Below, in pieces: positions 1 through 20,988 of a stretch of 21,005 bases of DNA. The notes under the pieces are model-generated. The model saw only the letters and a program-made list of their open reading frames with translations. It was not told the DNA's origin and made no database searches. Within the stretch, counting starts at the first letter, position 1; each line of letters starts with the position of its first letter. This DNA comes from Chlorokybus atmophyticus (taxonomy: Eukaryota; Plantae; Mesostigma and Chlorokybus algae). A program made the translations under genes and the position numbers. Where the stretch lies: contig RHPI01002738.1 of the NCBI GenBank assembly GCA_009103225.1, positions 19,416-40,420 on the forward strand, read 5' to 3'.

Positions 1-1
1 T

Positions 2-160
2 GCGTGGCAAACAGCGCTGGGAGTGCCATGGATGACCTCGGCCGTTTCCATAGCGAATGCAGTTCCTCCCGCAATGGCGGAGTGCATAGGGCGTCTCATG
101 CTTGAAACAATGGATATGCGCTGTGACTACCCTCCTGTGTCATGGAACTATGAGGCTTGA
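2..160 (+). CDS. 3' end (partial, 52 aa) of a probable C5-cytosine DNA methyltransferase; gene starts upstream of the window
   Basis: Frame +2 reads AWQTALGVPWMTSAVSIANAVPPAMAECIGRLMLETMDMRCDYPPVSWNYEA*, with TGA at 158-160. ANAVPP..A..IG..L matches C5-MTase motif X (GNAVPP..A..IG..L). The preceding W..ALGVPWMT resembles the W..AMGIDWMT segment of phage/bacterial-type C5 MTases. The catalytic PC motif is outside the window. Not listed in the ORF track. Confidence 0.62.
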   Translation, partial: AWQTALGVPWMTSAVSIANAVPPAMAECIGRLMLETMDMRCDYPPVSWNYEA

Positions 161-363
161 GTGTGGTGCACTGTATTGATGCTTAATGCCACACGGCGGA
201 CTGATTGTTGAATGTTGCATGGATCATTCGATTGTGGTGACAGTTGTGCAGTGACAGCTGCCCGGTATTGTACACGTCCACATGCAAAAGTCTTAGCATA
301 CGATTAGCAATGCCTAACTGACTGATATGCTCCAAACTGAGAGTAGTGAGACAAGTACATGTG

Positions 364-3300
364 TCACGTGGAAGTGCAGTGAACGTTCACCCAATACTTG
401 CCCTCTTGTACACGGGCGCTGTCCTTGTCAAACATGGGGAGCAGCTGGACAATGCCTTTTACTTGCTCCAGAGTCACGACATCGAAATGTGGACCGCCTC
501 GACGCTTTTCCCATTCCAGAGCGATGCACTTTGTGTCGCTCGTCACATCCAGCTTCGTGTACCAGCGAACAAACACGACGTCCTTCCACACGCGCTCGCC
601 GCTACCACCCCACACCACCACGCGCAGAAAAAGGAGTGCCTGAGCCCACCACGTCACGTTCACACCGTCCTCATCACCTTCCAACTCAAGTGTAGAGAAC
701 CAAGGCCGCCCATGGAACATCCCAGTTGCGCGCGCCATGCTGACTCCTGATGTCATGTACACCGCTGCGCCTCCGTTCACCACGCGAACAGCACGCCACC
801 CGTCGGCCAGCTCCAGTTGTTCCCTCCTCAACCAGCTGTCCAGGGTGGCAGGCAGCTTGTCGGCAAATGGAGTCTTCAAGGCGACTTGGCGGCTACGCGC
901 AGATCCGCTCCAGTACGGGCTGGACTCCCTCCTTGTCAGCACATCCATCCGTAGCAACTTGTCCGTCTTCTCCATGACATTACAGCACTGCTGCCGCGCC
1001 TGCGCCATGACCGAGCGCATCTCGGGATCCACGACCATGCCATCCTCTCTCACATATTCCGCACAGCTCCATGCCTTCAGGATACGTGCCTGGTAGTCCC
1101 GGTTGTTGCCACCACGCGCCCACCGTTTGATATTTTGGGCGTGCGTCTGCTCCATGCGGTTGGCGCTGAACCAATTTGGGTGTCCACTGCTGACAATTGC
1201 CGGCCCAAAATGAGTGAGCTGATGCATCTTCTCGATCTTCCAACCTGACTTCTGTGCAGAATATGACGACAGTAGCGGATGCAACACTGCAGCTTTGAAG
1301 GCAGCCAGCTCGTTGTCGGCTGTGGTCAGGGTCTCTCTTGTGTGTTCATGCGCCTTCAGCAACATCTGGTTCCACTGGGCAAGCGATGCGGCAGCAATGG
1401 TGAAGAAATCGTTGCCCTCACTGTCGAGCAGCAAACCGTCTGCGAGGACCGGCAGCAGCTGCAGCACCGCCACTTTCTCCACCACCTGAAAGGAGTGGTC
1501 GGACAGGAAGAAATCTACTGTGCTTGTGGGTGCCTTGAAGTGCGAAACCCGCAGAGTCGCCTTGCATGCATTCAGCCTGTGCACATCTGCTCGTGAGCAC
1601 GTGTTGTTGGCTTTTGTGTTCAACACAAAAGCAACACCAAAGACGTGCCTGGCCTGCAGAATCTGTCTCGTGGAAGGACGCATTCGTTCCTTCGCGGCGT
1701 CGTACACAGCAGCAAGCAGGTGGTCAATGATGCCTCCCAGCACATGCATTGCGTCAGGGGCAAGACGAGAGTAGCAGTCAGCTCCCGGCACCCGCGACTG
1801 TTGCCAACCCCACAGTGCATTCTGTTGCCAAACCACATTGCCTGGTTTCACGGAAAGCCATTCATCCTCACAAATGCCGGTAATTTGACCATTACCTCCT
1901 CGACATGCATGGAGTGCTGCTCTTTGAAAGCCTTGGCTGTCTGGCGTGCATTCCTAACACCGCTATGCAGGTCCGCCCGCAGCTGACGTATTGCTGGTGT
2001 GTAGAAGGCCTCGGTTCTCAATTCCCGGTCCTCATCCATCTCCAACCGATCTGATTAGGTGACGAGACAAACATCGCAAGGATGTCGTGTTTGGTTGCCC
2101 GACACAGTGCGTGCGATTGTGGCAGTCTCCTACAACACGACAAACTCAGATGTTCTACTGACAACATCCTCCATGCACTGTTTGCTGGCGGGCTGCATCC
2201 GGTTACAACCATTCATGCCCACTACCTGCAAATCGCTGATGTAGTTGGCAAGCGCGGGAAACACACGACGCTCGATGCCATTCGGGTCGATGAGCTGCAG
2301 ACCTTCCCAACTCGCCCGCTTCACATCCCCTAACACTACATTCAAAGCGTCATGAAAAATCTCACGTTTCCGAATGGAGAACGATTCCTTGCCCTGCGCC
2401 CAGGTGGGATGCCCGGCCACTGCGTGAACCACCGGCAGAAGCGCTATCATAACAACCCCCATGTTGCTAGCATACATGTCCCAACTGTAGTTGGCAAGCG
2501 ATGCCATCGAAGGGTAGCCAGAGCGCTTGCCCGCGCTGTCCAGCGTGGTCTTGTCACTGTACAGAATGGCAGGCGCCAAGTAGGACGCATCCCCCACCTC
2601 TCTCCTCAAATCCACCTCCACATCCTTCCACCAATCGCCCGTGGAAGGATGGCCAAAGCTGTGCTCGTCACCAGTGTACTGGAGATTGAAGCCATTGGCG
2701 GCATGTGGATTGCCATACAACCGCGCGAGCCATACCTGCTCCGACCAAGAGCATTACTTACTATGCTGGCCTCAGAATAGATACTGCATCGATACTGCAT
2801 TAGGTACTGCATTTCACAGACCTTGGCCGGCATATATGTGACGCAGATGTCCCGATCCTCAGGGTCTCCAGGCTTGCGCAAGTCAGCCGTCACGTAGTTC
2901 TGATACGGCAGCACACTCGCATGTGCATATGTGACATGGCTCTGATAGTTGAAGCACATGCACCGCACACCGTGAACACACCTCAGACTGAGAGAAAGCA
3001 ATCGTGGTCCGGAGGTAGCTGGCCGCATGCACACCGGTCTCCCACTGGAGCTCTTCCGTCAGGAAGTGTGCATTTTGGATGCACTTGATGATCCGCCCCA
3101 TGTCGGAGGCCGACAGGCCTTGGCCGTTGTTGCACTGCACGAATGCCACTGCAAGAGCATGCTCCGAGCCATACCACCTGAATTCCGACGCGTGCGAAGG
3201 GACGCCTGCACTTCCATGTTGGCGTGCCACTGGTTTCTTAGGCACACGCACACATCGAAAGCCCTCGTTCACTTCCTCCTCCTCCTGTTGCTGCTGTGCG

Positions 3301-3506
3301 TGTGTCTCCTGGAGGAATCCTTCAGCATCAAGCATGTGAGCATCCTGGATCGAACTCCCCGGTTCAACATGATCCGCATCGTACTGTAATGGACGCTGGC
3401 CGACATACAGCTTGATCTGCTTGCGAACCCTGCTGCTAATAATGTGCATGTAGACCGAGCTGCGTGTGGCAAAGCGCATGTGGCAATACGGACAAAGGAC
3501 TCCCAT
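364..3506 (-). pseudogene. Plavaka-family DNA transposase (spliced, about 948 codons) with N-terminal zinc finger and one in-frame TAA
   Basis: Reconstructed exons 3506-2982, 2941-2822, 2735-2226, 2129-1896 and 1821-364 are joined by phase-0 GT-AG introns of 40, 86, 96 and 74 nt (the 40-nt intron is the least certain). The product has CPYC..F.....VYMH at the N-terminus and Plavaka motifs GHPSTGDWW, PAILYSDKT, REIFHDAL, YISDLQE...CDVC, PDAMH...HL, KMHQLTHF..I...G....S....E..H...IK and ARAT..FHGRPWFS...VFVRWY. A single TAA lies at 2057-2055. Confidence 0.85.
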
Positions 3507-3573
3507 ATCTCACTACTAATGTCGACACAGGTGTCGCCAATGTAACCTGCATCATATCCAGCAACACGCACAC

Positions 3574-3616
3574 CCGCCGCCGCCGCCGCCGCCGCCACCG
3601 CCACCGCTACCGCTAC
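3574..3616 (+). repeat. (CCG)n microsatellite grading into CCACCG/CTACCG hexamers, upstream of the transposase start codon
   Basis: Read directly: ccgccgccgccgccgccgccaccgccaccgctaccgctacc. Confidence 0.85.
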
Positions 3617-3663
3617 CCTTGCATGCCAGAGGCGGGAAACTTGGCCGCCAGTCACTGGCTCCG

Positions 3664-3857
3664 TCGTACCATTATAATGGTACGAACGAGCCATTGCACG
3701 TCCAGGGTGAGTCTCTGGATATTTTTATATACATATATATTCTGATTGAACCGTTTCAATGGTACGAAGATGCCTTTGCCAAAAGGTATAGGCATTGTAC
3801 AAAGGTACCATTGAAATGGTACCTTTGTACAATGGCAATGGCAGTTCGTACCATTGA
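3664..3857. repeat. Palindrome/hairpin array built from an AATGGTAC(G/C) core
   Basis: A perfect 22-bp palindrome TCGTACCATTATAATGGTACGA at 3664-3685. A 20-bp-stem hairpin CATTGTACAAAGGTACCATT-GA-AATGGTACCTTTGTACAATG at 3793-3834. Outer inverted arms TCAATGGTACGAA (3756-3768) and TTCGTACCATTGA (3845-3857). Confidence 0.9.
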
Positions 3858-4015
3858 CAACTCTGGCAATGTCAGTCCCCCTGCGCATGAAAACACCATT
3901 GATAGCTCCGCCAAGCTATGCCCTTACAGGGGCGTGATGCCGAGGGTATGTGGCGTTTGGAAGATCGTTGGCGGCGCTGCCAGGGGCGTAGTGGGCATTG
4001 TGGTCGAGGTCCGGG

Positions 4016-4871
4016 ATGAATTCCATGTTCGCACAGGGCGGGCAGGGTGCCGGAGGGGTGTCCTCGGTGTCAAACCCCACCAAGACTACCAAGGGCACAT
4101 CCAATGACAACAGTGACTCGGGCGATATCTTACAGGGCTCCCCCTCCGAGTGGGCAAAGGCACACCACAATACTGCCTCTAAGAAAATCCGACCCACCAG
4201 CAGCTGCGACCACGGCGACATGATTGAAGGGACCAAACAAGACTGGCATAACCAAGGTGGGTTACGATGCACTGTCAATGCCACATGCTAGGGTTCTTTT
4301 ATCTTGCACATGCACAGCCTCAAGTATCTTGCACTTGACATACATTGTCAATACGACATGCACACCCTCATGCACAACCTCCAGTGTCATGCACATGAAC
4401 AGCATGACCAATCTCGCAAATGCACAGCCTATTTCTACTTGCGGGAGCTCACAAGTCGCAAAAGAGAAGCTGCGGAGTCAAACGAACGGGTAATCTATGA
4501 CCTAGTTTAATGTTTCCAGCGGTAATTAAGCAGTATGCTTGCAGATTGCCATGTTGGTCAGAGTGAACCAAGAGCAGCGCGGCAGGCTGACTGTCTGCCT
4601 GGCGGAGTGCAACAAAGCGGAAGACGAGGTAAGCGTGTGTATGCTGATGGGCTAGTCCTCTGGCAGCACGCCACTCTTACAGCATTACCAAATGCAGGTG
4701 GTCACTCTCAAAGCGACCATCAAGCGCATGCGCGTGCACGGCGAGGCGCTGACATTCAAGCTGAAAGACGAAGTAGCCGCTGTACTGTCAGCGAGCGAGG
4801 CAGCGGATGAAGATGACTCCGGCGTTGAAGCAGAAGACTCGTCGGAGGAGGAACAGGAGGAGGGGGTTTGA
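4016..4871 (+). CDS. Hypothetical four-exon protein (186 aa): low-complexity N-terminus, predicted coiled coil, acidic C-terminal tail
   Basis: Exons 4016-4256, 4428-4489, 4545-4628 and 4698-4871, with GT-AG introns of 171, 55 and 69 nt (phases 1, 0, 0), give one open frame: ...TKQDWHNQ|AYFYLRELTSRKREAAESNER|IAMLVRVNQEQRGRLTVCLAECNKAEDE|VVTLKATIKRMRVHGEALTFKLKDEVAAVLSASEAADEDDSGVEAEDSSEEEQEEGV*. The third donor is a canonical AG|GTAAG. The start codon is uncertain. Confidence 0.6.
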
Positions 4872-6022
4872 GGAGGAGTTCTGAGGCAGGCACCACGGGT
4901 TGACAAGCTGCGCATGAGTCCGACAGCTAGACTCAATGTTATAGGATAGTTTCATGCGCAAGTTGGCTGCTCAGTTGTAAGTGGACATACTCTCACCACT
5001 GCCCGTACATTGTATATATTGTAGGCTTTTAGGTGCAAGACCAAACAATCAGTCCAAGGTTTGTACAAGCTGCATGGCATGTCAGTGTTGGCTTACGGCA
5101 AGAATTGCCAACTTTTGTCAAATGGCAAGGGCACATATTAACAGCAGTGTAACGGCAAAGAAACTGCCGGCTATTGCTGTCAGCTGTCCGTAACTACCGG
5201 TCAACGGCCGTCTGTGCACATCGACCAAAGGGTAACTGGTTGACAACTCTCGGCCGGTTAGTGCCACTGACAACCACTTTCGGCCCGCGGCCGTCTGCGT
5301 CAGTCCACTTAAGCCAACGGCAAACCCAACAGTCCAAAAGTAATATTTCAGGCAGGCTCAGGCAGGCTCAGGCACCAGTCAGTCCCTCAGTTCTTAGTCA
5401 GTCACCGTGTAAAATTTGACTAGTAGTCGGCATACCGTGCAATACCACAGTGACAACCTAAGTGACAACATATGAAGCGGCGACGACGAAGTCACACTTA
5501 TTGATGTATTCTACCTGCAACATAAAGACAAAATACAAGCACATGCCCCCCCAAAAAAGGTAGCTCTTGGGATGGGGTAGCGCGCGTAATATTGTGATAA
5601 TAGCACTTGAGGTTGTGACGGGAGTTATGCCCACCAACGGTGACGCACTATGTATATATTGCGTCATCGTTGCAACGAGCATATATATATGCATCGTCAC
5701 GCACATCCTCTATAGACAGTTTCATGTTGATGATCAATGTCAGCATACCAATCACTGAAGGGGTTCACAAGTTGCAAAGCACGCTCAAGCATCTTGTTGC
5801 TATAACTTGTGAGCCATCGCGTGGATTCGCGTGCGGATTGTTTCAAAGCAAGTGTCTGGTGAAAAGGTGTGTGGAGAGCTCTTGTTTAAGCTGAATACTT
5901 TACTTTAAGCACTTGAAACTTGACGAGGCAAAATCAGTAAATTTGAACACTTCTGAAGTGCACAACTTGTGTGTTTGCGCACTTGCGCACTTCCATTATT
6001 GACAGCTTGTGTCGTTGGGCAG

Positions 6023-7466
6023 ATGTCTGATTAAGGAGAAGAAGGTGTGGGGTATCCTTCCATGGCTGATAAGTCAACATCATACTGGCCATTTAGTGAT
6101 GAGGAAGTGAAGGACTCGGACACGAGTGAAAGCTATAAGCTTACCGGCGGTGATAAGGAAGGAAAAGGCACGCAGAAGAGCGATGCTTTTCGCAACCAAT
6201 CTTCTCAAGGTGAACCAATCGACACTCAGAGTGTCATTGGCAGGGCCATTAAGAGATATGCCTCAGAGTGTAAGGCTCTACTACTTGCTGCCCACTCTCA
6301 CCTTCGTCAGGAAACATGGGATGCATGGGCGTAAAAGGTTTGTAATGGATGAGACAGACTTTGCCACACTCCCTCGCGCAAGCAAGGAGATGGTGATCCG
6401 CATCCTTTAGCACGAGTTGATGAACCACATCCCGCCACTCGTGAGAGGTGATCCGAAAGTGGCTGGTCTCATGACCATATATTATAAGCCACTTCCATAC
6501 GAAGGGAAGTGCATGGCATTTGAGGCCTTGGCCAACTTAGTGGTGGAAACCTCACAGCGTTGTAAGGACGTGTTCTGATACTTGAGACCTGACTTGGAAC
6601 ACAAGTTGACAGGCCGAGTAAAGTTGGCGGCACGCCTCCATGATATGCGGTCTGAGTTGGTGGCACTACGCCAACAGGTGGTGCATTAGCAGGGCTGCCG
6701 ATGAAGCGCTGAACAAGCTTGAGAAGTTGAAGCCCAACAACAGTGTCAGCATCCATGACTGGGTGGTCATTGTTGAGCACTATTTGACAGCATTAAAGCG
6801 CCCAATTGGTGAGCATATTGATGTTGCCGAGTTGCTCATGCCACAACGCTCTAGCTAAGTGGGCAAGGCAGAAAGAGAATGGTGCGGCCAAGACAATGGA
6901 AGCGCTATTAAAGGAAGCGCTATTGAAGTTCCTGTGGAGCGCTATGGTGGCATGGACCCGCCTACTCAGGCTCGCAACAAGCTCAACAAGTTGAGACAAA
7001 ATGGCCGGGCGGCTTCAACCTACCTGCAAGAGTTTCAAGCATTGGTGGGTTGCATGAACAGTGGCCTTATGCCCATGAACAAGGCTGAACAGTTTGAGTT
7101 ATACAAGCGCGACTTGGATGCGTGTGTGCGCCATCAGCTGCAATACAACACGGCAACGGGACTTCCTTGGGTTTTTAAAAGACTTGGCCAACCTGCAGAA
7201 GTTGAGCGTGTATATGTATAGTGATAACACAGCGGTACAGAGAAGGCACATGTGGCAGCGACCAAGCCACAGGGGGTGGGAGGAAAGCGCCACTCTCAGC
7301 GAAGTGCGCACACGGCAAAGAAGGCGAAGACATGTCTCATGCTGGTGGCACATCTGCTAGTGGTGCTACACCTGCTGCGGCTCCCACTTGTTATGTCTGT
7401 CATCAGCTGGGCCGCGTTGCGAAAAGTTGCCCCGCCAAGAAGGGCAAGGCCAAGAAGGTTGAATAG
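6023..7466 (+). pseudogene. gag: gag of element A (retrotransposon gag domain plus CCHC-type zinc knuckle), broken
   Basis: Fragments EKLKPNNSVSIHDWVVIVEHYL, ERYGGMDPPTQARNKLNKLRQNG and CYVCHQLGRVAKSC...KAKKVE* align to the gag of B. The ATG at 6023 corresponds to the ATG at 20292 in B. Confidence 0.85.
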
Positions 7467-7758
7467 GAATACGCCGTGACTGATGTAGATGCGGTTGATA
7501 GCTAGTTGCTTGAGATGCAAGCAGCAAGCTGGATTTATGATCTGTCCCAAGTGCATGTAATGACACATGCATGGCAAGCACATAACAAATTGCCACTCGC
7601 TGATGTTGAAAAAGTAGAAGAGAATGCTTGTGTGCTGGTACATATGGAGTTAACATGCTGACCGATGTGTTGCATTAACTGAGTTGTAAAATAAGTACGG
7701 GACCTTGAGTATGGTGGTGATGGTGCCCGAGTATCATGGCCCATGGTTAAAGCATACT

Positions 7759-7823
7759 GGGGGGGGGGGGGGGGGGGGGGNNNNNNNNNNNNNNNNNNNN
7801 NNNNNGGGGGGGGGGGGGGGGGG
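7759..7823 (+). other. Poly-G tract containing a 25-N assembly gap
   Basis: G at 7759-7780, N at 7781-7805, G at 7806-7823. The homologous site in B has only 5 G (C run at 18521-18525). Confidence 0.9.
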
Positions 7824-8602
7824 CTGTATTTGAGCAATTCAGCAAGCGTGAAACAGGGACAGTGCGGTTGTCAGCATATTAATCAACCTGCGCATTTGCC
7901 ACAGGATCTTGGCTACATTTCAGGGACGGGTGGTACCTTTGTTGTAGACGATGGTGGCACAATGCAGGGTGTAAACAGTTTGTTCTTGATTGACACTGGT
8001 GCAACACACAACTTCGTTGAGGAACAATGGGTTGTGCGCGACAAGACACCGTGCAAACCCTCAGCATTTTCAGCTGCCGATGCCGGGGTGCGTTGGCAGT
8101 GAAAGGGGAGATAAAAATGAAGGTTGAGATTGGTAATTATCATGCCACTCTTACTTTCATAGTAGTATCCATCGACATATCAGGTGTTGGTGTGGTTTTA
8201 GGAGAAGAATGGCAGGAGAATGTTAAAATGACATTGTACGCTGGCGCACGCTTGTGCACAGTAAAGCAAAGTCGTAAGCGTGTAACTTAACTTGTTGAAC
8301 ATTGTCTGTGAGAGGGTCGCATAGCTTGGAGCACAAGCAGCTTGACCCTGCGCAACTCGTTGCACTGCAAGTGAAACGTGCGTTGCGCAAAAACACACTG
8401 GCTTTTCCGGTACACTTCATGTCGTCGGATGACTTTGTGCCGGGCAATATAGAAGGTGGTGCGGACATCACTGACAAGTACCAAGATGTGTTTTACGATG
8501 ACTTGCCAGGCTTACCTGATCGAGGTGTCGAACACACAATACCACTCATTCCTAATATCGAGCCTCCGTTTCAGCCTATATATAGGCTGAGCCCTAGAAG
8601 GC

Positions 8603-8643
8603 GGGGGGGGGGGGGGGGGGANGGGGGGGGGGGGGGGGGGGGG
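8603..8643 (+). other. Second poly-G tract with an ambiguous base
   Basis: G at 8603-8620, A-N at 8621-8622, G at 8623-8643. The homologous site in B has 6 G (C run at 17742-17747). Confidence 0.9.
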
Positions 8644-9960
8644 CATAAAAACTCAAATCAAGAAGTTCAGCAGGCAGCAATCATCATCAATTACGGGATG
8701 TAGACACGTGTGACAAATGCCAGCGTAACAAGCCGTTACGTTGCAGAAATTCGCTGGTTTGCTGCAACCATTGCATGTTCCTGATGGCAAATGGGAAAGT
8801 GTGAGTATGGGCTTTATTACTGAGCTCCTAGAGATAGCAAAAGGTCACACTGTGGTTGCAGTTTTTGTGGACCGTTCAACAAAAATGGTTCACATTGTCC
8901 CTTGTCGCACGAAGATAGGCTCCCGTGAGATGGAGATGGATTTTGTCGTGTCTGTGTTAAATATGCATGGCTTGCCTCGCAACTTTGTGTTCGATCGCGA
9001 TCCACAATCCAAAGGTCGTCATGCAGCTTCTTACATTTTCAACAAAATGTGAGCTTACCATCTGCAGACGGATGGTCAGACAAAACGCTTTCATCAAGTT
9101 ATTGAGGAAACCATTCAGCACTATGTGAGTGCGAATTGAAGTGATGGGGATATTTATCTCCCGATGGCTAAGTTCGCAATCAATAATGTATGACATGAGA
9201 GTGTGCAGGAAACTCCGTTTTTGTTGAATTACGGAGTGCATCCGTTGAGTCCTGCAAACAAGTTGCCCGCTACCGACATACATAACTTGCGTACCTGCTG
9301 CATGCGAGATGGCTTCGGCCACGCAGGACATGTTAGCATTGGCAAAGGACTGTCTGCGCGCAGCGTTGGATAGTAAAAAGCCCAAGCTGATGCGCATCGT
9401 AGAGAGGCCAGCTACGATGTGGGCTGTTTGGTGCTTCTCAGTATCAAAAAAATATCCATTGGAGGAGTGGGTACTCGCAAGTTTTTCCTCGCTGAATAGG
9501 CCCTTTCAAGTGATTGATTGGGTCGGCACTTACGCGTATCGGTTAGACTTGCCAAATCGATACGCATTAATAATGTGTTTTATGTGAGTGTATTGAAACC
9601 GTATCGTTCTGACGGTCGGGTTCAACCTCCTCCACCCCTCGTTGCAGTGGATGGCGACGAAACTTTCACATATGAGGTGGAAGCAATCTTGAATCACCGT
9701 AAGCCTCGATGCGGAGGCGCGCCGTCTTACTGGGTGAAATGGAAAGGGTATGGTGTCGAGCACAACACGTGGGAGCCCGAAAGGAATTTTACCAACAGCT
9801 AAGAGATTTTTTGGGGGTACTGAAGTGCTGTGTCCACACGCGGACGGTAAAAGGGTGCTGGCAGACATCTTTACCGCTTCGGCCCTAGTTCACTTACTAC
9901 TTTGGTTCTCATTGCTCATGGTGGGGCTTTGCTAACCCTTCGATGAAGACACTGAAACCT

Positions 9961-9973
9961 AAGTGGGGGGGAA
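9961..9973 (+). promoter_or_regulatory. Polypurine tract of element A
   Basis: AAGTGGGGGGGAA immediately before TGTAACGG; the same arrangement occurs in B. Confidence 0.85.
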
Positions 9974-10294
9974 TGTAACGGAGTGCTACCTCTATAGAGG
10001 TTCCCGGCCCTTACTTAGATCAAATAAGGGTCCCAACTGGTATATACAGCCAATCAAGCCGGATTAGGGCCGTTGAGAACTTAGTGTTAAGGCCCTAATG
10101 TAATGTAACTTATCTGTAACACTGATATCGACATGAGACATGAGTCTCATGTGGATATCAGCTGTATGACGGCACTGCTAACGCAGCCGCCGCCATAGCC
10201 AGGGAATCTTTAGCTGCGGCAGTTGCCCCTGACGGCGGTGAGGACGGCGCAGCTGGGGGTGGTGTTGGGGCAGGTAGCACCCCCTTCCCTTACA
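9974..10294 (+). repeat. 3' LTR of element A (321 bp, TG...CA)
   Basis: Begins TGTAACGG after the PPT and ends CTTACA. It aligns end to end with 14939-14603 (-), and homology stops exactly at the CA in both copies. Confidence 0.85.
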
Positions 10295-12235: not shown

Positions 12236-14602
12236 TCAGCTGCTATCGCAAGTGGGGGGGGGGCCGTTGGCGCGGCAATCGTCGCACCAATACTCCTCCA
12301 TGGGTATTGCGTCCAATGGGGGCTCCAGACAATAGCAATGCAGGCCCTTGTTACAGCCATCGCAGAGCATCATGAGTGCGTCGTCGTTGGCGCTGCCGCA
12401 GCGTTCACAGCGTGTGCTGCGGGCGGGGCGAGGGTGCTGGATGCGCGCAAAGCCATCTACGTAAGGGAGGTGACATGGCGCGCAGTTCACCATGTTGTCT
12501 TTCAACCTCTCTCCATTTTCACCGAGGAGGTCCAGCACCCCTGTGGGGTACACCTTGAATACCTTGTAGACGGTGCGGCCCACGGAGGTATCGAGCGTGT
12601 CCTTGATGGCTGCCATGCGGTAGGCAAAGTCCCCTGCTTGAAATCGCCATTGGCGCTCCTTGTAGAAGCCGCTGCGCACGCGCTCGTAGCACAGAGTGTC
12701 GCGGTGCTGCGCGACGCGCAGGTTGTTGAAGGCCATAGGGACGGTGCGCTTGAACAGCGCGGCGCGTGTGGTAGTGTCGTGGTGCATCCAGTCGGGATCG
12801 TCGAGGTTGATCACCACACGATCTACTTCCTGCTGTGCACGAAAGGGAAGCAATGGCGGACAACCGAACAGCATGTAGTATGGGTTGTACTTGCGCAGAG
12901 CCGCCTGCTTTGCCAATCGGTATCCATGGGCCACCCACAGAAGGTGGTCGTTCCAGGTGTTCTTCTCATACTCCAGCACGTACTTGCGGAGGGCCTTCCT
13001 AATAGTCTGCACTGTACGCTTGGCGAGACAATTGGCTTGGGGATGGTCACACGAAGTACGGCGATGATTGATGTAGCATCGGTCCAGAAGGGTGCCGAAC
13101 TCCCCTCCGAACTCAATCCCTTGGTCGGTGATAACCTTAGCGCAGCTGCCGAACCTGCTGAGGGCATGGGAAAGGAAGGCTTGAGACACCCCCCTGCTGC
13201 TCTTGTCGGGTAATGGCACCAGCTCCACCCATTTGGAGAAGTGCTCGATTATGACCAGGATGTAACGGTTGCCACGTGCCGAGGGTGCCAAGTCTCCCAA
13301 GATGTCGAGTCCTCAACGATAGAATAGACCGGAGATGGGGAGTGGGTGCGAGGTGGCGCTGCGTGTGTTGAGGCTGGCGCCCATGTCACACTGTTGGCAG
13401 TGACTGACGAACCCCTGCACCTGCTTGGACAACCCAAACCACCAATATTGCACCCTTGTCAGCCTGACGGTATGTTTGACACCGAAGTGTCCAAGCTCAG
13501 TGTGGAGGATAGTGATGATGCCCTCACATGTGGCTGGTGTCGGCACTTTTTTATTTTCATCATGGAAACGGCGATACAGCTTGTCGTCTGCCCACCGATA
13601 GTGGTGGGCGCGTTGATTGACACAATCTCTCTCTCGTGCACTCATGCCGGAGGGAAGCTGGCCACTTTAAACGAAGGAAAGTGATGGCTTGTTCAGCCAT
13701 ATATCCTGCCTGGTGTCGGTGGGTGCCATCTCGGTGTCATTGTCTTCAATGTCAACCGCGTGGGCATCCCTAAGGGTGTGGTCACTGTGGGGCCGGTAAA
13801 CTCAAGGGCAGGAATCTTCTCCGCCGTTGATGTGGCAGTGGTGTTGGTCTTGCGCCCTGAGCGTAATGCGGCAGCAGCAAACATGGCTGCCACGGTAAGA
13901 GCCGCCGCTGCAGGGTTGAGCTCATGCCGAGCTCCGGTTGCATCGTTGGTGCTGACGTGAGGGTTACGACTGAGGCCATCGACGTCTTGGTTGGTAAGGC
14001 CGGCGCGGTGGTCGATCTCAAAGTCATACTCCTGCAACAGCAGGGCCCAGCGAGCAAGTTTTCCTGTCAGATGTTGGTTGATCATCAACCACTTGAGTGG
14101 TTGATAATCGGTGATTAGCTAAAATTGTCGACCAAAGGGGAAAGGTCGGAAGAAGGAGATAGCCCACACTGCAGCGAGGCACTCCCTCTCGTAGCTGCTG
14201 TAGTTGGCCTCGGCGCTGTTGTTGCTTCGGCTGGCGTATGACACCATTTGCTCCTTCTTATTCTCATCGTATTGCACCAGCACAGCCCCCATCCCGAGCT
14301 TGCTCCAGTTGGTGTGGAGGATGAAGAGCTTGGTGTAGTCAGGGCGTTGAAGGATGGGAGCTGTGGTAAGCCTGCTCTTTAGCTCCTAAAAAGCCTGCTG
14401 CTGTGGCTCATTCCACGCAAACTCCACTTCCTTCACCTAGGAGCTCGTTGAGGGGCCGCGCGATCTTTGCAAAATCCTTCACGATCCGGCAATAGTAGTT
14501 GGCAAGGCCCCGGAAGGCGCGCAGGCGCGTAAGGTCCGTTGGAGCAGGGATAGCTGCCAGGGCCTCCACCTTTGCCTGCTGTATGTACACACCAAGGGGC
14601 AC
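12236..14602 (-). pseudogene. pol: pol (partial) of element C: RT C-terminus, RNase H, integrase, PHD finger
   Basis: Motifs LRAFRGLANYY, FILHTNWS..GMGAVL, ITDYQPLKWL...KLARWALLLQEYDFEI.HRAG, LHTELGHFG...CQQC, FYR*GLDILG and TDQGIEF. A C4HC3 PHD (CERC...CDGC...HCYC...WCDDC) lies at 12409-12276. There are several in-frame stops and at least two frameshifts. Confidence 0.88.
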
Positions 14603-14939
14603 TGTAAGAGAGGGGTGCCTCCCTCCTCCCTTTCATCCCCTACCCCAACACCACTACCAGCCGCCACGCCCACGCCGCCGCCGCCAGGGGGGACTGCCGA
14701 AGCAGAAGATCCCCTAGCTATGGCGGTCGTTGCGTTAGCAGCGCCGCCATGCGGCTGTTATCGACATGAGACTCATGTCTCATGTCGATATCAGTGTTAC
14801 AGACAAGTAACACTACATTAGGGCCTTAGCATAAGTTAACGGCCCTAATATGGCTTAATAGGCTGTATAATCCCGTTGGGACCCTTATTTAATCCTAAAT
14901 AAGGGTGGGGAACCTCTATGGAGGTAGCACACCGTTACA
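14603..14939 (-). repeat. 3' LTR of element B (337 bp, TG...CA)
   Basis: On the minus strand it begins TGTAACGG at 14939 and ends CTTACA at 14603; homologous to 9974-10294. Confidence 0.87.
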
Positions 14940-14953
14940 TCCCCCCCCACTTT
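14940..14953 (-). promoter_or_regulatory. Polypurine tract of element B
   Basis: AAAGTGGGGGGGGA on the minus strand, directly before the LTR TG. Confidence 0.85.
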
Positions 14954-15088
14954 GGTTTCAATGTCCTCTTTGAAGGGTTAGCAAAGCCCCACCACGAGTA
15001 AAGAAACGAAAGTAGTAAGAGAATCAGGGCCGAAGCGGTAACAATGTCTGCCAGCACCTTTTTACCGTCTGCGTGTGGACACATTACT

Positions 15089-18000
15089 CTAGTACCCCCG
15101 AAGAATTTCCTGGCAGTTGGTAAGATTCCTTTCGGGCTCCCATATTTTGTGCTCAACACCATACCCTTTCCATTTTACCGAGTAAGACGGCGCGCGTCCG
15201 CGTCGAGGCTTACGATGACTCAGGATTGCTTCCACCTCATAGGTATCGTCGCCATCCACTGCAACGGGGGTGGAGGAGGTTGAACCCGACCGTCACAACG
15301 GTACGGTTTCAGTACACTCACATGAAACACATTGTGAATACGTATCGACTTTGGCAAGTCCAAACGATACGCGTGAGTGCCGACCCGATCAATCACTTTA
15401 AACGGGCCTATCCAGCGAGGGAAAAATTTGCGGGTACCCACTCCCTTGATGGATATGTTTTTTGTGCTAAGAAGCACCGAACAGCCCACATCGTAGTTGG
15501 CCTCTCTACGATGCGCATCAGCATGGGCTTTTTGTCTGTCTTGCGCTGCGCGCAAACAGTCCTTTGCCAACGCTAACCTATCCTGCATGGCCGAAGCCAT
15601 CTCGCGCGCTGCAGGTACGCGAATTATATCGGTAGCGGGCAATTTAATGTTTGCAGGACTCAGTGGATGCACTCCATAAATCAAGAAAAACGGAGTTTCC
15701 TGCACACTCTCTTGCCATGCATTGTTAATCGCGAACTCAGCCATTGGGAGATAAACATCCCACTCAGATTGGTTCGGACTCACATAATGCCGGATGATTT
15801 CCTCAATCACTTGATTGGCGCGCTCTGTCTGACCATCCGTTTTTGGATGGTAAGCTGTGCTCATGTTCTGCTCAATATGTAAGAAGCTGCATAGCGACTT
15901 CCAGAATTGAGCTACAAATCGCGCATCGCGATCAGACACGAAGTTACGAGGCAAGCCATGTAACTTAAACACAGAGGCGACAAAAAACATCGCTAATTCA
16001 CGGGAGCCTATTTCCGTGCGGCAAGGGACAATGTGAACCATTTTTGTTAAACGATCCACAAAAACTGCAACCGCAGTGTGCCCTAATGCTGTCTCCGGGA
16101 GCTCAGTAATTAGGTCCATACTCACACTTTCCCACTTGCCATCAAGAACAGGCAAAGGTCGCAGCAACCCAGCGGGTTTCTGACGTAACGGCTTGTCACG
16201 CTGACATTTGTCACACGTGTCAACATAATGCTTCACGTTAACAGGCAACGATGACCACCAGTACAACTGTTGCGCTGCCTTAGTAGTCTTGCGACCGCCA
16301 AAGTGCCCAGCATACGGTGGATCGTGTACTTCAGCTATGCATTTTATGCGCAACCCAGCATGGTCAGGTATCACCAAGTTGGCGCCCACATATTACAAGT
16401 TGTCTCTTTTGTCAAGCTGTTGTACATTCTGTTGTACAGAGAACCATGGGTCTAATGCATACCCCTGTAAAACAGCTTGCACAAACTCATCATCAGGAGG
16501 CAATGAACCCTGCGTTGCAAGCAACTGCGCACGCATCACTGCCAACAATGACGGACAGTGACTCAGAGGATTTGCCACGTTGGTCCTGCCCGGCCGGTAT
16601 ACCCATTCAAAGGTAAATCGCGACAAGAACTCATTCCAGCGACCCTGCCTACGCGACAAGTTTAGCTGTGTTGAGAAGTATACCAACGGGTTGTGATCAG
16701 TCACCACTGTGAACTGAACTCCCTCCAAGTAACATCGCCCTGTTTCAAGAGCATGCACTATACCAAGCAATTCCTGCTCAGTGGTAGTGTAGTTCACCTC
16801 TGCTGAAATAAATTTCCTATTCTCATAAGCACATGGTCGGCCGTCCTGTAGCAATACTGCACCACACCCAAAGGTGGAGGCATCGCTAATCACAGTGAAG
16901 TGTTTATCCCAATTTGGCAATGCCAATACTGGTGCTGAAGTCAAAGCCAGCTTCACTTGTTGCATAGCAGCTTCTTGTGCTGCAATCCAAGAGAATGGGG
17001 CATCCTTTCGCAATAGTTTTGTAAAAGGCACCACAACTGTAGAGTACCCCATTATAAACTTGTGAAAGTAGTTTGCCAACCCCAAGAATGATCGCAATTG
17101 ATGGATATTCTTAGGTTGAGGCCAATCTGTTACCACTTGCACTTTGCGAGGGTCAGGTTTGACACCCGCACCACTCACAATATGCCCTAAGAATGGCAAC
17201 TCTGTCTTGCAAAAGTTACACTTTGACAAGTTGGCAAACAAGCGATGTGTACGCAGCAAGGCGAACACCGCTTCCAAGTGCTGCTTATGCTCTTCCTTGG
17301 TTTTACTAAAGACAATGATGTTATCCAAGTAAATCATAACATACTTGCCAAGTATGCCACCAAAAATCTTATTCATTTCCTTCTGAAACACTGCGGGCGC
17401 ATTAGTCAATCCGAAAGGTAACACTTTGTATTGATAATGGCCCGAAGGTGTTCTGAATGCTGTCTTGTAAACATCAGAAGGATGAATCCGGATTTGATGA
17501 TACCCACTTGTCAAGTCCAACATACTAAAGTACGCATTTCCCGACAGTTTATCAAACACATTATCAATCCGGGGCAACGGGTATCGATTCTGTACCGTGA
17601 TCTTGTTCAAAGCACGGTAATCCACACACATGCGCAGCTTTCCATTCTTTTTCATCACAAACAAGATGGACGCGCCAAAGGGTGAAGAACTCGGTTCAAT
17701 CAATCCCTTTTCCAATAACTCTTTGATTTAAGTTTCCATTTCCCCCCTCTCTCGGGGGCTCAGCCTCTATATAGGCCGAAACGGAGGCTCACTATCAGGA
17801 ATAAGTGGTATTGTGTGTCCGACACCTCGATCAGGAGGTAAGCCTGGCAACTCATCTGAGAACACATTTTGATATTTCTCAATGATGTCTGCAACACCTT
17901 CTGTATTTCCCGGCACAAAGTCTTCCGACGACGTCAAGTGTACCAGAAAAGCCGGTGTGTTTTTGCGCAACGCACGTTTCACTTGCAGTGCAGTGAGTAG

Positions 18001-18822
18001 CGCTGGGTCGGGCTGTTTGCGGTCCAAGCTATGTGACCCTTTCACAGACAATGTTACACGCTTACGACCTTTCTTTACTGTGCACAAGCGTGCCCCAGTA
18101 TCCAATGTCATTTTGTTGTTCTCCTGCCATTCCTGTCCTAATACCATATCAACACCTGATATGTCGATGGGTACCACTATGAAAGTAAGAGTGGCATAAT
18201 AATTACCAATCTTTATTTTCATTTTTATGTTCCCTTTCATTGGCAACGCACCCCCCGCACCGGCAGCTGAAAATGCAGAGGGTTTACACGCTATCTTGTT
18301 GCGCACAACCCATTGTTCCTCAACGAAATTGTGTGTTGCACCAGTGTCAATCCAGAACGAACTATTTACCCCTTGCATTGTGCCACTGAATGTCCACAAC
18401 AGAGGTACTACCCGTCCTTGAAATGTAGCCAAGAGTCCGTGACTAATGCGAGGGTTGAGTAAGTTTGCTGACAATCGCACTGTCCCTGTTTCACGCTTGC
18501 TAAATTGCTTAAACACAGTTCCCCCTCGAGTGTGTTTTAACCATGGGCCATGATATTTAGGCACCATCACTACCACACTTAAGGTTCTGTGCTTACTTTG
18601 CAACTTGGTCAAAGTGTGCAACACATCGGTAAGCATGTTAAACTCCACATGTACCAACACACAAGCATTCTCTTCCACCTTTTCAACATCAAAAAGTGGC
18701 AATTTGTTATGTGCTTGCCATGCATGCGTCATTACATGCACTTGGGACATCTCATCAAACCAGTTTGCCACTAGTACAAGCAACTGGTTATCAACCACTC
18801 CTACATCAGTCACGGCGTACTC
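15089..18822 (-). pseudogene. pol: pol of element B: MTase-like domain, aspartic protease, RT, RNase H, integrase (HHCC, DDE, GPF), chromodomain
   Basis: Motifs WIDTGATHNF, LRMCVDYRALN, LDLTSGYHQ, PFGLTNAP, YLDN (YLDD mutated), SDAS..GCGAVL, TDHNPL, H..GH..CDKC, SMDLIT, SDRD, ERAN, RWIGPFKV and YEVEAIL...KWKGY...WEPERN. The ORF-track pieces form one frame broken by TAG 17769-67, TAA 17730-28 and TAA 16395-93, plus a 1-bp deletion near 15257 (relative to A). Confidence 0.93.
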
Positions 18823-20292
18823 CTATTCAACCTTCTTGGCCTTGCCCTTCCCCTTGGTTGGGCAGTTCTTTGCGATGTGGCCAGGCTGATGATAGATGTA
18901 ACAGGTGCGAGCGGCAGCAGGCATGCTACCACCAGCAGGTACGCCACTGGTAGAAGCACCAAATGTCTTCGCCTTCTTTGCCAGATGTGCACTCGGATGA
19001 GAGAAACGCTCTCCTCCCACCCCCAGCGGCTTGGCCGAAATTGCCACATGTGACTTGTCTTGCACCGTCGTGTCATCATTGTACAGGTACACGCTTAGCT
19101 TCTGCAGCTTGGCCAAGTCCTCTGGAACCCAAGGAAGTCCCGTTGCCGTGTTGTACTGCAGCTGATCACGCACACGCGCATCCAAGCCGCGCTTGTACAA
19201 CTCAAACTGCTCGGCCTTGTCCATGGGCATGAGGCCGCTGTTCGCACGACCCACCAATGCCTGAAACTCCTGCAGATAGGTTGAGGCCGCCCGACCATTC
19301 TGGCGCAACTTGCTGAGCTTGTTGCGAGCCTGAGTAGCCGGGTCCATGCCACCATAGCGTTCCATCAGGAACTGAAAAAGTGCCTCCACTGTCTTGGCAG
19401 CACCACCTTCTGTCTGCCTCGCCCATTTGGCGAGAGCATCGGATGGCATGAGCAACTCAGCAACAGCAATGTGCTCAATAACCGGGCGCTTGAGTGCCGT
19501 CAAGTAGTGCTCGACAATGACCACCCAGTCATGAATGCTGACGCTGCCGTTAGGCTTGAACTTCTCAGGCTTGTTCAGAGCTGTCACCGGCAGACCTGCT
19601 GATGCCCCAGCTGCCGAAGTAGCACCTGCCACCTGTTGGCGCAGCGCCACCAACTCAGCCCGCATGGCATCGAGGGGTGCCGTCAACTGTACTCGGCCAG
19701 TCAACTTGTCTTTCAAGTTAGGTCCCAAGTACAAGAACACATCCTTGCAACGCTGCGAGGTTTCCACTCCCAAGTTGGCCAAAGCCTCGAACGCCATTCA
19801 CTTTCCTTGGTAAGGGAGCGGCTTATCATATACGGCCATGATAGCTGCCACCTTTGGATCACCTCGCACGAGTGGCGCGATGTTGTTCGTCAGCTCATGT
19901 TCGAGCATGCGGATCACCATCTCCTTGCTTGCACGAGGGAGTGTGGCAAAGTCTGTCTCATAGCCATCACGAACCGTCTACGCCCATGCTTCCCACGTTT
20001 CCTAACAAAGCCGAGGGTGGGCAGCAAGCAGAGCTTTACGCTCTTCTGCATACTTCTCAATGGCCCCGCCAATGACACTGCGAGTGTCCACTGCAGCTGG
20101 TGCACTATGATTGTCCACTGGTGCACTCTTAGAAGACTGGTTGGGAGAAGCTTCGCTGTCTTGCTTAGCTCCTTCGTTCTCACTGTCAGTAAGCTTATAG
20201 CTTTCACTCGTATCAAAGTAGTTCACTTCCTCTTCACTCAATGACTCATATGATGTGGACTTCTCCACATCATCCCCTCCTTGGTCAGACAT
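18823..20292 (-). pseudogene. gag: gag of element B (489 codons from ATG 20292; three in-frame stops)
   Basis: One continuous frame from MSDQGG to KAKKVE*, with stops at 20004-02, 19980-78 and 19800-798. It contains the gag domain (KPEKF...W...E.YL...A..W...F..RYGG...A..KL..LRQ) and zinc knuckle CYIYHQPGHIAKNC (second Cys mutated). Confidence 0.88.
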
Positions 20293-20988
20293 CTGCCCAA
20301 GAATACAAGCCGTCAATAATAGAAGTGTGCAAGTGCACAAAACACCCAAGTTGTGCACTACAAAAGTGTCAAAATCTATAGATTTTGTCTTGTCAAATTT
20401 CAAGTGCTTAACGTGGAGTATTCAGCTCAAACAAGAGCTCTCCACACACCTTTCAACTAGACACTCAAGTTGAAACAAACCGCACGCGAATCCACGCGGC
20501 GGTTCACAAGTTACAACTTGTCAAACTTTGCACTTTGTACAACTCAGCTCAACCCACAATTGTAATTGACACACTGTGTGCCAAAATCTCGTTGAATCAA
20601 CCCTACGGGCTGATATCAACGAATTGTGAGTTGTGAGTTTGATATCGGCCGCACAGAGTGACTCTGGCGGCCTCACTGACTGGCGGTAACGGCAGCCGAT
20701 GTTGCCACCGGACAGCCTCACAAGGGTTGGTTTTGTGAAAACTATATCACACCCTTTACACCACCACGGATCCACGTGGTGGCAAGTCACAACACAAGCA
20801 CAAGCACAGTATGTTATCATAATAATGTGATTACAAGTGATGTGCTGGGCATGCAATGCTTGGGAGGGGCTGCCTAAGTGGCCGCCTCCCCTTCACGCAA
20901 GCTAACAAGCCTGCCTAGGCAGGGCAGGGCAAGGCAAGCAAAACTAGGCTAAGCTAGGCTAAGCACCAGCAGCAATTATAACTACTAT

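Follow-up and report, generated by a model that had tools for sequence, protein, structure and literature searches.

A Plavaka transposon at the left of the window

The stretch of DNA analyzed here, referred to as the window, comprises 21,005 nucleotides of the alga Chlorokybus atmophyticus (contig RHPI01002738.1, positions 19,416 to 40,420). Its first 5.4 kb (1-5418) form the right-hand part of a multi-copy DNA transposon of the Plavaka (CMCT) group, as delimited by contig depth and loose ends, and the left end of this element lies beyond the window. The element carries the last codons of a gene for a compact C5 cytosine methyltransferase of the phage type (2-160, plus strand), a convergent gene for a Plavaka transposase (364-3506, minus strand), an array of palindromes (3653-3855), a predicted small spliced gene (3937-4871, plus strand) and a right terminus (5349-5418, plus strand). 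An earlier note on this DNA had proposed a Plavaka transposon with a cytosine methyltransferase as cargo and had confined the unit to 2-4871; the repeat instead ends at 5418 and, on the left, continues beyond the window.

The extent of the element was determined with contigs of public runs (X1 to X6) compared with positions 1-6200. The summed depth was 81-415 in X1 and 27-216 in X2 across the 26 bins of 1-5382, with the lowest values near a GCC run and the hairpins of the array, and it dropped to 4 and 0, respectively, in the bin 5590-5796. Behind 5418, five X1 and four X2 contigs departed from the window, and their mutual agreement there was low (0.59 and 0.61), in the way expected of separate insertion sites. 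The copies are dispersed and have differing flanks, as is required of a member of Plavaka/CMCT. Runs X2 and X3 come from one sample, and the window itself may derive from X1, which leaves at most two independent views; X4 and X5 gave short pieces, mostly at a depth of 2-9, which were excluded as evidence of range, and X6 gave none.

Loose ends and repeat positions place the right terminus at 5349-5418, where a short tandem repeat, CAGGCAGGCT, begins at 5349 and 5359 and the element ends with ..CCGTGTAAAATTTG at 5418 (terminal letters ..AAAATTTG). The number of units of the subterminal 10-nt repeat at 5348 varies among copies. Compared on the right side only with the general CMCT termini, 5'-CA..TG-3', the end reads ..TTTG, and ..GTGTAAAATTTG fails the termini of both PlavakaA and PlavakaB. 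The right end recurs nowhere else in the window, in either direct or inverted orientation. The five long high-depth X1 contigs listed had depths of 130-167, compared with 3.8 for the contig carrying the window copy's own flank, which corresponds to roughly 30-45 copies, the depth ratio being a rough guide and not a copy number. The window copy differed from eight high-depth X2 contigs at 29 of 3420 nt (0.85%) and from five X1 contigs at 12 of 1522 nt. Divergence of about 0.8%, together with a stop codon where the common form reads lysine, indicates that the family is young and that the window copy is a damaged member of it. A search of 1-6000 with Rfam gave no match, and genome-index DNA searches returned simple-repeat or short chance matches only.

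The transposase is predicted to be encoded by five exons (3506-2982, 2941-2822, 2735-2226, 2129-1896 and 1821-364) separated by four GT-AG introns of 40, 86, 96 and 74 nt, which together give 948 codons. The open reading frame (ORF) at 2130-2750 on the minus strand matched the Pfam family Plavaka, PF18759, with 79.1 bits (cut-off 26.3) and an E value of 4.6e-22, in keeping with the identification made in the earlier note. The predicted protein begins with a C2H2-like finger and has a CMCT-type layout of D276, D383, C403-x2-C406, H663-x3-H667 and E687. The catalytic D and E were assigned by eye, without an alignment, on the basis of what we take to be the motifs of the family. The CMCT motif rule itself is that of PMC12730594. 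The earlier note had placed Plavaka with KDZ elements and considered both as described mainly from fungi; Plavaka is grouped instead with EnSpm/CACTA (CMCT; PMC12730594) and occurs in algae (PMC13519894). The last transposase exon lay nearest to red-algal, fungal and Plavaka/DUF6830 clusters with scores of 0.92-0.97, recognition being below threshold. A word-index protein search with the last long transposase ORF found no match, which is weak evidence, and the Plavaka fragment had no close relative among viral contigs.

The transposase frame of the window copy is interrupted at codon 410 by a stop (2055-2057, minus strand) that is private to this copy. At position 2057, the whole of the X1 and X2 depth has another letter, which restores a lysine. 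Given this stop, the window copy is unable to move by itself.

The end of a C5 cytosine methyltransferase gene

The plus-strand frame at 2-157 is open and closes with a TGA at 158-160. Its 52 codons would encode what we presume to be the motif IX-X region of a C5 methyltransferase, followed by a Y-P-P tail. Of the six frames over 1-160, one on the minus strand was also open, and a family match was obtained only for the plus-strand frame. A tblastn search with the tail retrieved 141 phage records at E<=10, the best at 4e-5; among the 20 records listed, 8 were annotated as DNA methyltransferase and 12 as hypothetical. With a family profile built from 121 relatives, the tail reached 29.3 bits, an E value of 1.4e-8 in the set of 519 ORFs of the window, compared with 1.4 bits for the next-best window ORF and 3.9 bits for the best of 1000 shuffles. 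An exhaustive phmmer search with the tail gave five matches, three of them real, and ESM Atlas returned DNA_methylase clusters (24% of the members of the second match). The tail keeps the family positions W, G, W, PP, E, G and R and is 42-49% identical to its nearest relatives. The last segment of the profile aligned weakly (2.5 bits) to residues 340-370 of the C5 methyltransferase 3g7u. A word-index protein search with the tail was without a match, again weak evidence, and the exact 21-nt tail pattern occurred in no stretch of the viral contigs and in none of the prokaryote contigs.

The full-length relatives P0005, P0010 and P0013 retain FCGxGG, SPPC and ENV (motifs I, IV and VI), and the shorter P0004 retains motifs IV and VI. 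A structural model of P0010 (pLDDT 81.8) was used for fold comparison, and every PDB match listed was a C5 methyltransferase, the best with an E value of 2.8e-8; the model matched DNMT1, MET1, DNMT3, M.HaeIII and M.HhaI. The best viral match was a Pithovirus C5 methylase, with 33% identity and an E value of 1.8e-19. The C5-methyltransferase fold of the family is thus seen in a predicted model of a relative and not in the window copy. Taken together, the profile, the tblastn matches and the fold of a relative identify the tail as the C-terminal end of a C5 methyltransferase of the compact kind, as the earlier note had suspected of the C-terminus that ends at 160.

Linkage of the tail to the transposase

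The stop of the methyltransferase tail and that of the convergent transposase (364-366, minus strand) are 203 bp apart, and the interval between them was unbroken in the common form of the repeat. In all 30 bins of 1-480 the depth was at least 134 in X1 and at least 79 in X2, and between the two genes there was neither a joint nor a loose end of high depth. The gap is spanned by X1 contigs covering 48-259 (depth 139) and 230-351 (depth 130), a single X3 contig of 2521 nt holds the whole of 1-480 and 1198 nt upstream of it, and an X2 contig of depth 113 extends 196 nt to the left of base 1. The five loose ends listed in 1-480 were represented by one contig each, and four of them, judged by eye, resemble diverged copies of the same sequence. 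The tail in the window is identical to the majority form. The earlier note had named 160-364 as the place where a boundary would separate the two genes; since contigs of three public runs cross 1-480 unbroken, and do so at full repeat depth, there is no element boundary within this interval. Furthermore, the flanks differ at 5418, as for independent insertions, so the left end on which the transposase depends must lie past the tail of the methyltransferase.

These data bear on the possibility that the methyltransferase belongs to another unit, either an endogenous virus or a second element hit by Plavaka, and was co-amplified. The position of the left end beyond the window and the viral and bacterial distribution of the enzyme family would agree with such an origin. 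We nevertheless regard it as very unlikely: no terminus-like break was found within 1-5418 and the right end has no inverted copy there, just 203 bp lie between the two stops, and the flanks diverge exactly at 5418 in the manner of independent insertions.

Relatives of the tail and an inserted MBD

The nearest relatives of the tail were P0002 and the metagenomic or assembly proteins P0004, P0005/P0007 and P0010. A Y-P/D-P extension after the last helix, common to the tail and all of these relatives, was found in 6 of 125 proteins, the window tail included, and in 1 of 175 fetched loci having the motif. A tree of 122 sequences grouped the tail with P0002, P0004, P0005, P0010 and P0013 as one clade of six, with a FastTree support of 0.978 (217 columns); the same clade had a support of 0.834 on the 40 columns covered by the tail. 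The tree was rooted at its midpoint, its columns exclude the Y-P/D-P extension, and P0011, P0129 (two domains) and P0007 (a near-duplicate) were omitted from it.

In P0004, P0005/P0007 and P0010, a methyl-CpG-binding domain (MBD) lies between the catalytic core and the tail. That of P0010 matched PF01429 with 34.9 bits (cut-off 21), and a match to MBD2 structures had an E value of 2.6e-7. The insert of P0013 is basic and gave no MBD match, so that membership in the clade does not guarantee an MBD. In the window element, the corresponding position falls just to the left of base 1. Among the 36,365 ORFs of 254 loci fetched from viruses, metagenomes and prokaryotes, none matched an MBD profile, and P0004, P0005 and P0013 had no close relative in viral contigs. 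A metagenome scan gave, among the matches listed, short forms without the insert only. A search of the literature (titles and the starts of abstracts) found no description of a C5 methyltransferase with an inserted MBD. As an observation in its own right, P0004, P0005, P0007 and P0010 are unannotated C5 methyltransferases of 280-337 amino acids in which the MBD precedes the C-terminal motifs. Such relatives, at about 320-340 amino acids, would be very small reader-writer enzymes, useful in epigenome engineering.

P0002 is a 109-amino acid gene model on a 10-kb contig with the source name jgi/Chrzof1, which we take to be the green alga Chromochloris. It resembles the 3' portion of a gene belonging to this subclade, and a chlorophyte may thus harbor a related element.

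The palindrome array, the small divergent gene and the neighboring elements

Between the starts of the transposase gene and the divergent small gene, the sequence at 3653-3855 is an array of palindromes on GTACCATT-nn-AATGGTAC. All six of the half-sites GTACCATT/AATGGTAC present in the window fall within 3666-3855. When 1-5418 was shuffled 200 times with dinucleotides preserved, 8-mers never exceeded 3 copies per 250 bp, and the array pointed out in the earlier note is not reproduced by chance. Hairpins are predicted at 3650-3700 (-14.7 kcal/mol) and 3785-3842 (-22.3 kcal/mol). The array is a candidate protein-binding or promoter element. A minority of copies do not have part of the second hairpin (3790-3804). 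GTAC was considered as the target of the enzyme and rejected, being enriched in the array only (8 of 22 sites) and nowhere else.

The small gene at 3937-4871 is a GT-AG splice model with predicted exons at 3937-3945, 4037-4256, 4428-4489, 4545-4628 and 4698-4871, or with an alternative start at 4016. Its product would be 182 amino acids long from the ATG at 3937, or 186 from the ATG at 4016, the latter being the length proposed in the earlier note, and has an acidic C-terminus. The model is open to 4871 and lies within the repeat depth. The exon pieces gave no convincing match to Pfam or PHROG and no homologue in support of the model.

The remainder of the window holds elements of other types. 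One Ty3/Gypsy family is present as inverted copies at 5803-10267 (plus strand) and 14649-20513 (minus strand), which are 80-92% alike where their blocks match. Of the two, the left one is broken and the right one keeps long ORFs for gag, protease, reverse transcriptase, RNase H and integrase. A near-perfect 40-nt palindrome occurs near the inner ends of both, at 10122-10161 and 14755-14794. A different Gypsy-type pol lies at 12236-14800 (minus strand), with a PHD finger at the integrase end (E 7.6e-9). The window has a GC content of 50% and short introns. Together with the PHD-bearing Gypsy elements, and with a genome index that ranked the source genome in one phylum with most of the plant-group genomes returned, these traits suggest a green alga as the host.

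A transposon that likely methylates its own DNA

We consider it likely that the Plavaka element, of which 1-5418 represents the right-hand portion of one among many copies, carries a C5 methyltransferase of the phage or giant-virus type tail-to-tail with its transposase and uses it to methylate its own DNA. The transposase family and motifs, the repeat depth, the sharp right end, the identity of the tail and its linkage to the transposase in the common form are observed. The 5' part of the methyltransferase gene would lie inside the left terminal repeat, expected to begin 5'-CAAATTTT.., and probably has motifs I, IV and VI intact, as its relatives do. The enzyme may have come from a virus or a bacterium, given that the family is widespread in phages and that its best viral fold match is to a pithovirus, and by analogy with its closest full-length relatives, it may include a chromatin reader domain (MBD). 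The transposase would use the terminal repeats to cut and paste the unit. The cargo enzyme would be expressed from the left end and would write 5-methylcytosine (5mC) in cis on the DNA of the element, with help from the reader domain and perhaps with the palindrome array as its anchor. New copies marked in this way would resemble methylated host DNA, and expression of the element's own transposase would be damped, with the result that host and element might both survive. A logic of self-methylation has been proposed for retrotransposon DNMTs (PMC5890265), and one of self-modification for the cargo of red-algal Plavaka elements (10.1101/2025.02.11.637652). The cargo proposed in the earlier note is thereby supported by the identity of the tail and by its unbroken, full-depth linkage to the transposase across 160-364, which suggest a 5mC writer on a DNA transposon.

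Several results weigh against this interpretation. Only 52 residues of the enzyme are inside the window, with motifs I, IV and VI outside it, and the tail alone gave no match to Pfam, PHROG or NCBIfam. P0003 and P0006 (with the isoforms P0008 and P0009), the other two of the five phmmer matches, are repeat-rich, lack methyltransferase motifs and were set aside as chance matches. The left end is beyond the window, and with it the terminal inverted repeat and the 2-5 bp target-site duplication expected of Plavaka/CMCT elements. The two genes were not found side by side in a second organism, as the transposase matched none of the 254 fetched loci, and the tail matched none of 19 plant and protist genomes. 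Base composition held no footprint of self-methylation: the CpG observed/expected ratio was 0.78 in the element and 0.71-0.78 in the neighboring Gypsy elements, 6 of 16 C-to-T changes were at CG and 6 at CC, and no 4-mer was depleted beyond a z of -1.9. Among old low-depth copies, 9 of the 11 tail changes listed were non-synonymous, with no sign of selection. The missing footprint is less telling because a family diverged by less than 1% has had little time to acquire one. The lack of a sign of selection is as expected of dead copies, yet it gives no support. The suggestion in the earlier note that the enzyme might mutagenize its targets likewise found no sign in base composition.

Alternatively, the gene might be carried along without any activity, as a fragment captured from a virus or as a reader that has lost catalysis, hitch-hiking on a recent burst of copies. 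Copies less than 1% apart need no selection to keep a frame open, there is no methylation footprint, and the catalytic motifs are beyond the window. The family positions, kept at 42-49% identity, point on the other hand to long selection before the burst, and we consider inert cargo unlikely. An enzyme active in trans is a further alternative, one that would place reader-guided 5mC on rival repeats or host chromatin or would steer insertion to methylated regions. An MBD such as those of the closest full-length relatives would bind any methylated CpG, the MBDs of an arthropod Copia have been proposed to steer insertion (PMC6673714), and CpG loss specific to the element was not seen. A costly gene kept by one family is more simply explained as a benefit to that family, an argument made for TET cargo (PMC12730594, section 4.2), and the element's own palindrome array could anchor a protein that the element encodes; action in trans thus appears quite unlikely.

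Beyond self-methylation by this one element, we tentatively propose that a clade of small virus-type C5 methyltransferases has repeatedly gained eukaryotic chromatin readers, MBD in the relatives, and rides on green-algal cut-and-paste transposons as a read-write loop in a single protein. If true, such a loop would seed and spread 5mC independently of the host DNMT1/CMT/DRM machinery.

Comparison with known systems

5mC is normally a weapon of the host against transposons. Published Plavaka cargo erases this mark (TET) or writes adenine and histone marks, and a transposon with a 5mC writer of its own would reverse that logic. It would also be a route for phage or giant-virus methyltransferases into eukaryotic chromatin. 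The explanation offered for retrotransposons is not applicable to a cut-and-paste family without a complementary DNA (cDNA) stage. With tens of near-identical copies and a transposase that, in the common form, is open at the one stop observed, the question of why a transposon should methylate DNA could be tested in one alga.

Plavaka elements are found across Archaeplastida, algae included (PMC13519894; PMC12633428), and several mobile elements carry or adjoin related functions. Fungal Plavaka elements have TET cargo (PMC12730594), red-algal ones carry an adenine methylase-SET gene and a ParB-2OG gene (10.1101/2025.02.11.637652), giant repeats of Amoebidium are flanked by Plavaka elements (PMC11244446), a cut-and-paste element of Chlamydomonas carries TET (10.64898/2026.10.09.758095), and an MBD occurs in an arthropod Copia (PMC6673714). 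The literature searched yielded no nuclear cut-and-paste element, Plavaka or other, that carries a C5 methyltransferase, although one could be described in papers behind a subscription, in Repbase or in the supplements of bioRxiv articles (Bostrychia Table 6), and the available parts of PMC12344493, PMC11982613 and 10.1101/2021.11.30.470311 mention no such element.

The giant Plavaka elements of Bostrychia with PAG1-3 (10.1101/2025.02.11.637652) resemble the window element in combining a transposase with accessory genes, one of them a DNA methylase, and in having internal inverted-repeat arrays; self-modification has been proposed for them as well. In their PAG2, SET is fused to an N6-adenine methylase (PF01555), whereas the cargo in the window is a phage-type C5 methyltransferase, and the visible part of the window element has no ParB or 2OG gene. 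TET+ PlavakaB and other TET+ transposons of fungi (PMC12730594) share the transposase group with its C(2)C and H(3-4)H motifs and a cargo that acts on cytosine marks, but TET oxidizes 5mC, which the window cargo would write. According to the same source, PlavakaA ends in TGT..ACA and PlavakaB in CATCA..TGATG, and the window's right end, ..AAAATTTG, fits neither.

Mobile elements with a C5 methyltransferase of their own, for which self-methylation was proposed, are known in SymbioLINE-Dnmt, SymbioDIRS-Dnmt3 and a Klebsormidium element, and de novo CG activity of the DIRS enzymes was shown in yeast (PMC5890265). As described there, these are retrotransposons with a cDNA stage, and the DIRS and charophyte enzymes are of the Dnmt3 type and host-derived. 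The window element, by contrast, is a cut-and-paste transposon with a separate gene of the prokaryote or virus type. Mariner-1_OLpv of Organic Lake phycodnavirus (PMC3627910) is likewise a cut-and-paste transposon that encodes a C5 DNA methylase, but it resides in a virus genome, has a Mariner transposase and a paired restriction-type nuclease and is not a nuclear, spliced, multi-copy family. Finally, the compact C5 methyltransferases of actinophages and soil bacteria (Gordonia phage Kamaru gp76; about 210-240 amino acids) share the C-terminal W..AMG..W....IPP.Y...IG segment with the window tail. Unlike these enzymes, the tail carries a Y-P-P extension, and in the tree it clusters with the MBD-bearing forms. 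What appears to be new, from sequence comparison, is this grouping of the tail with a green-algal gene model and with unannotated metagenomic methyltransferases, three of which have an inserted MBD.

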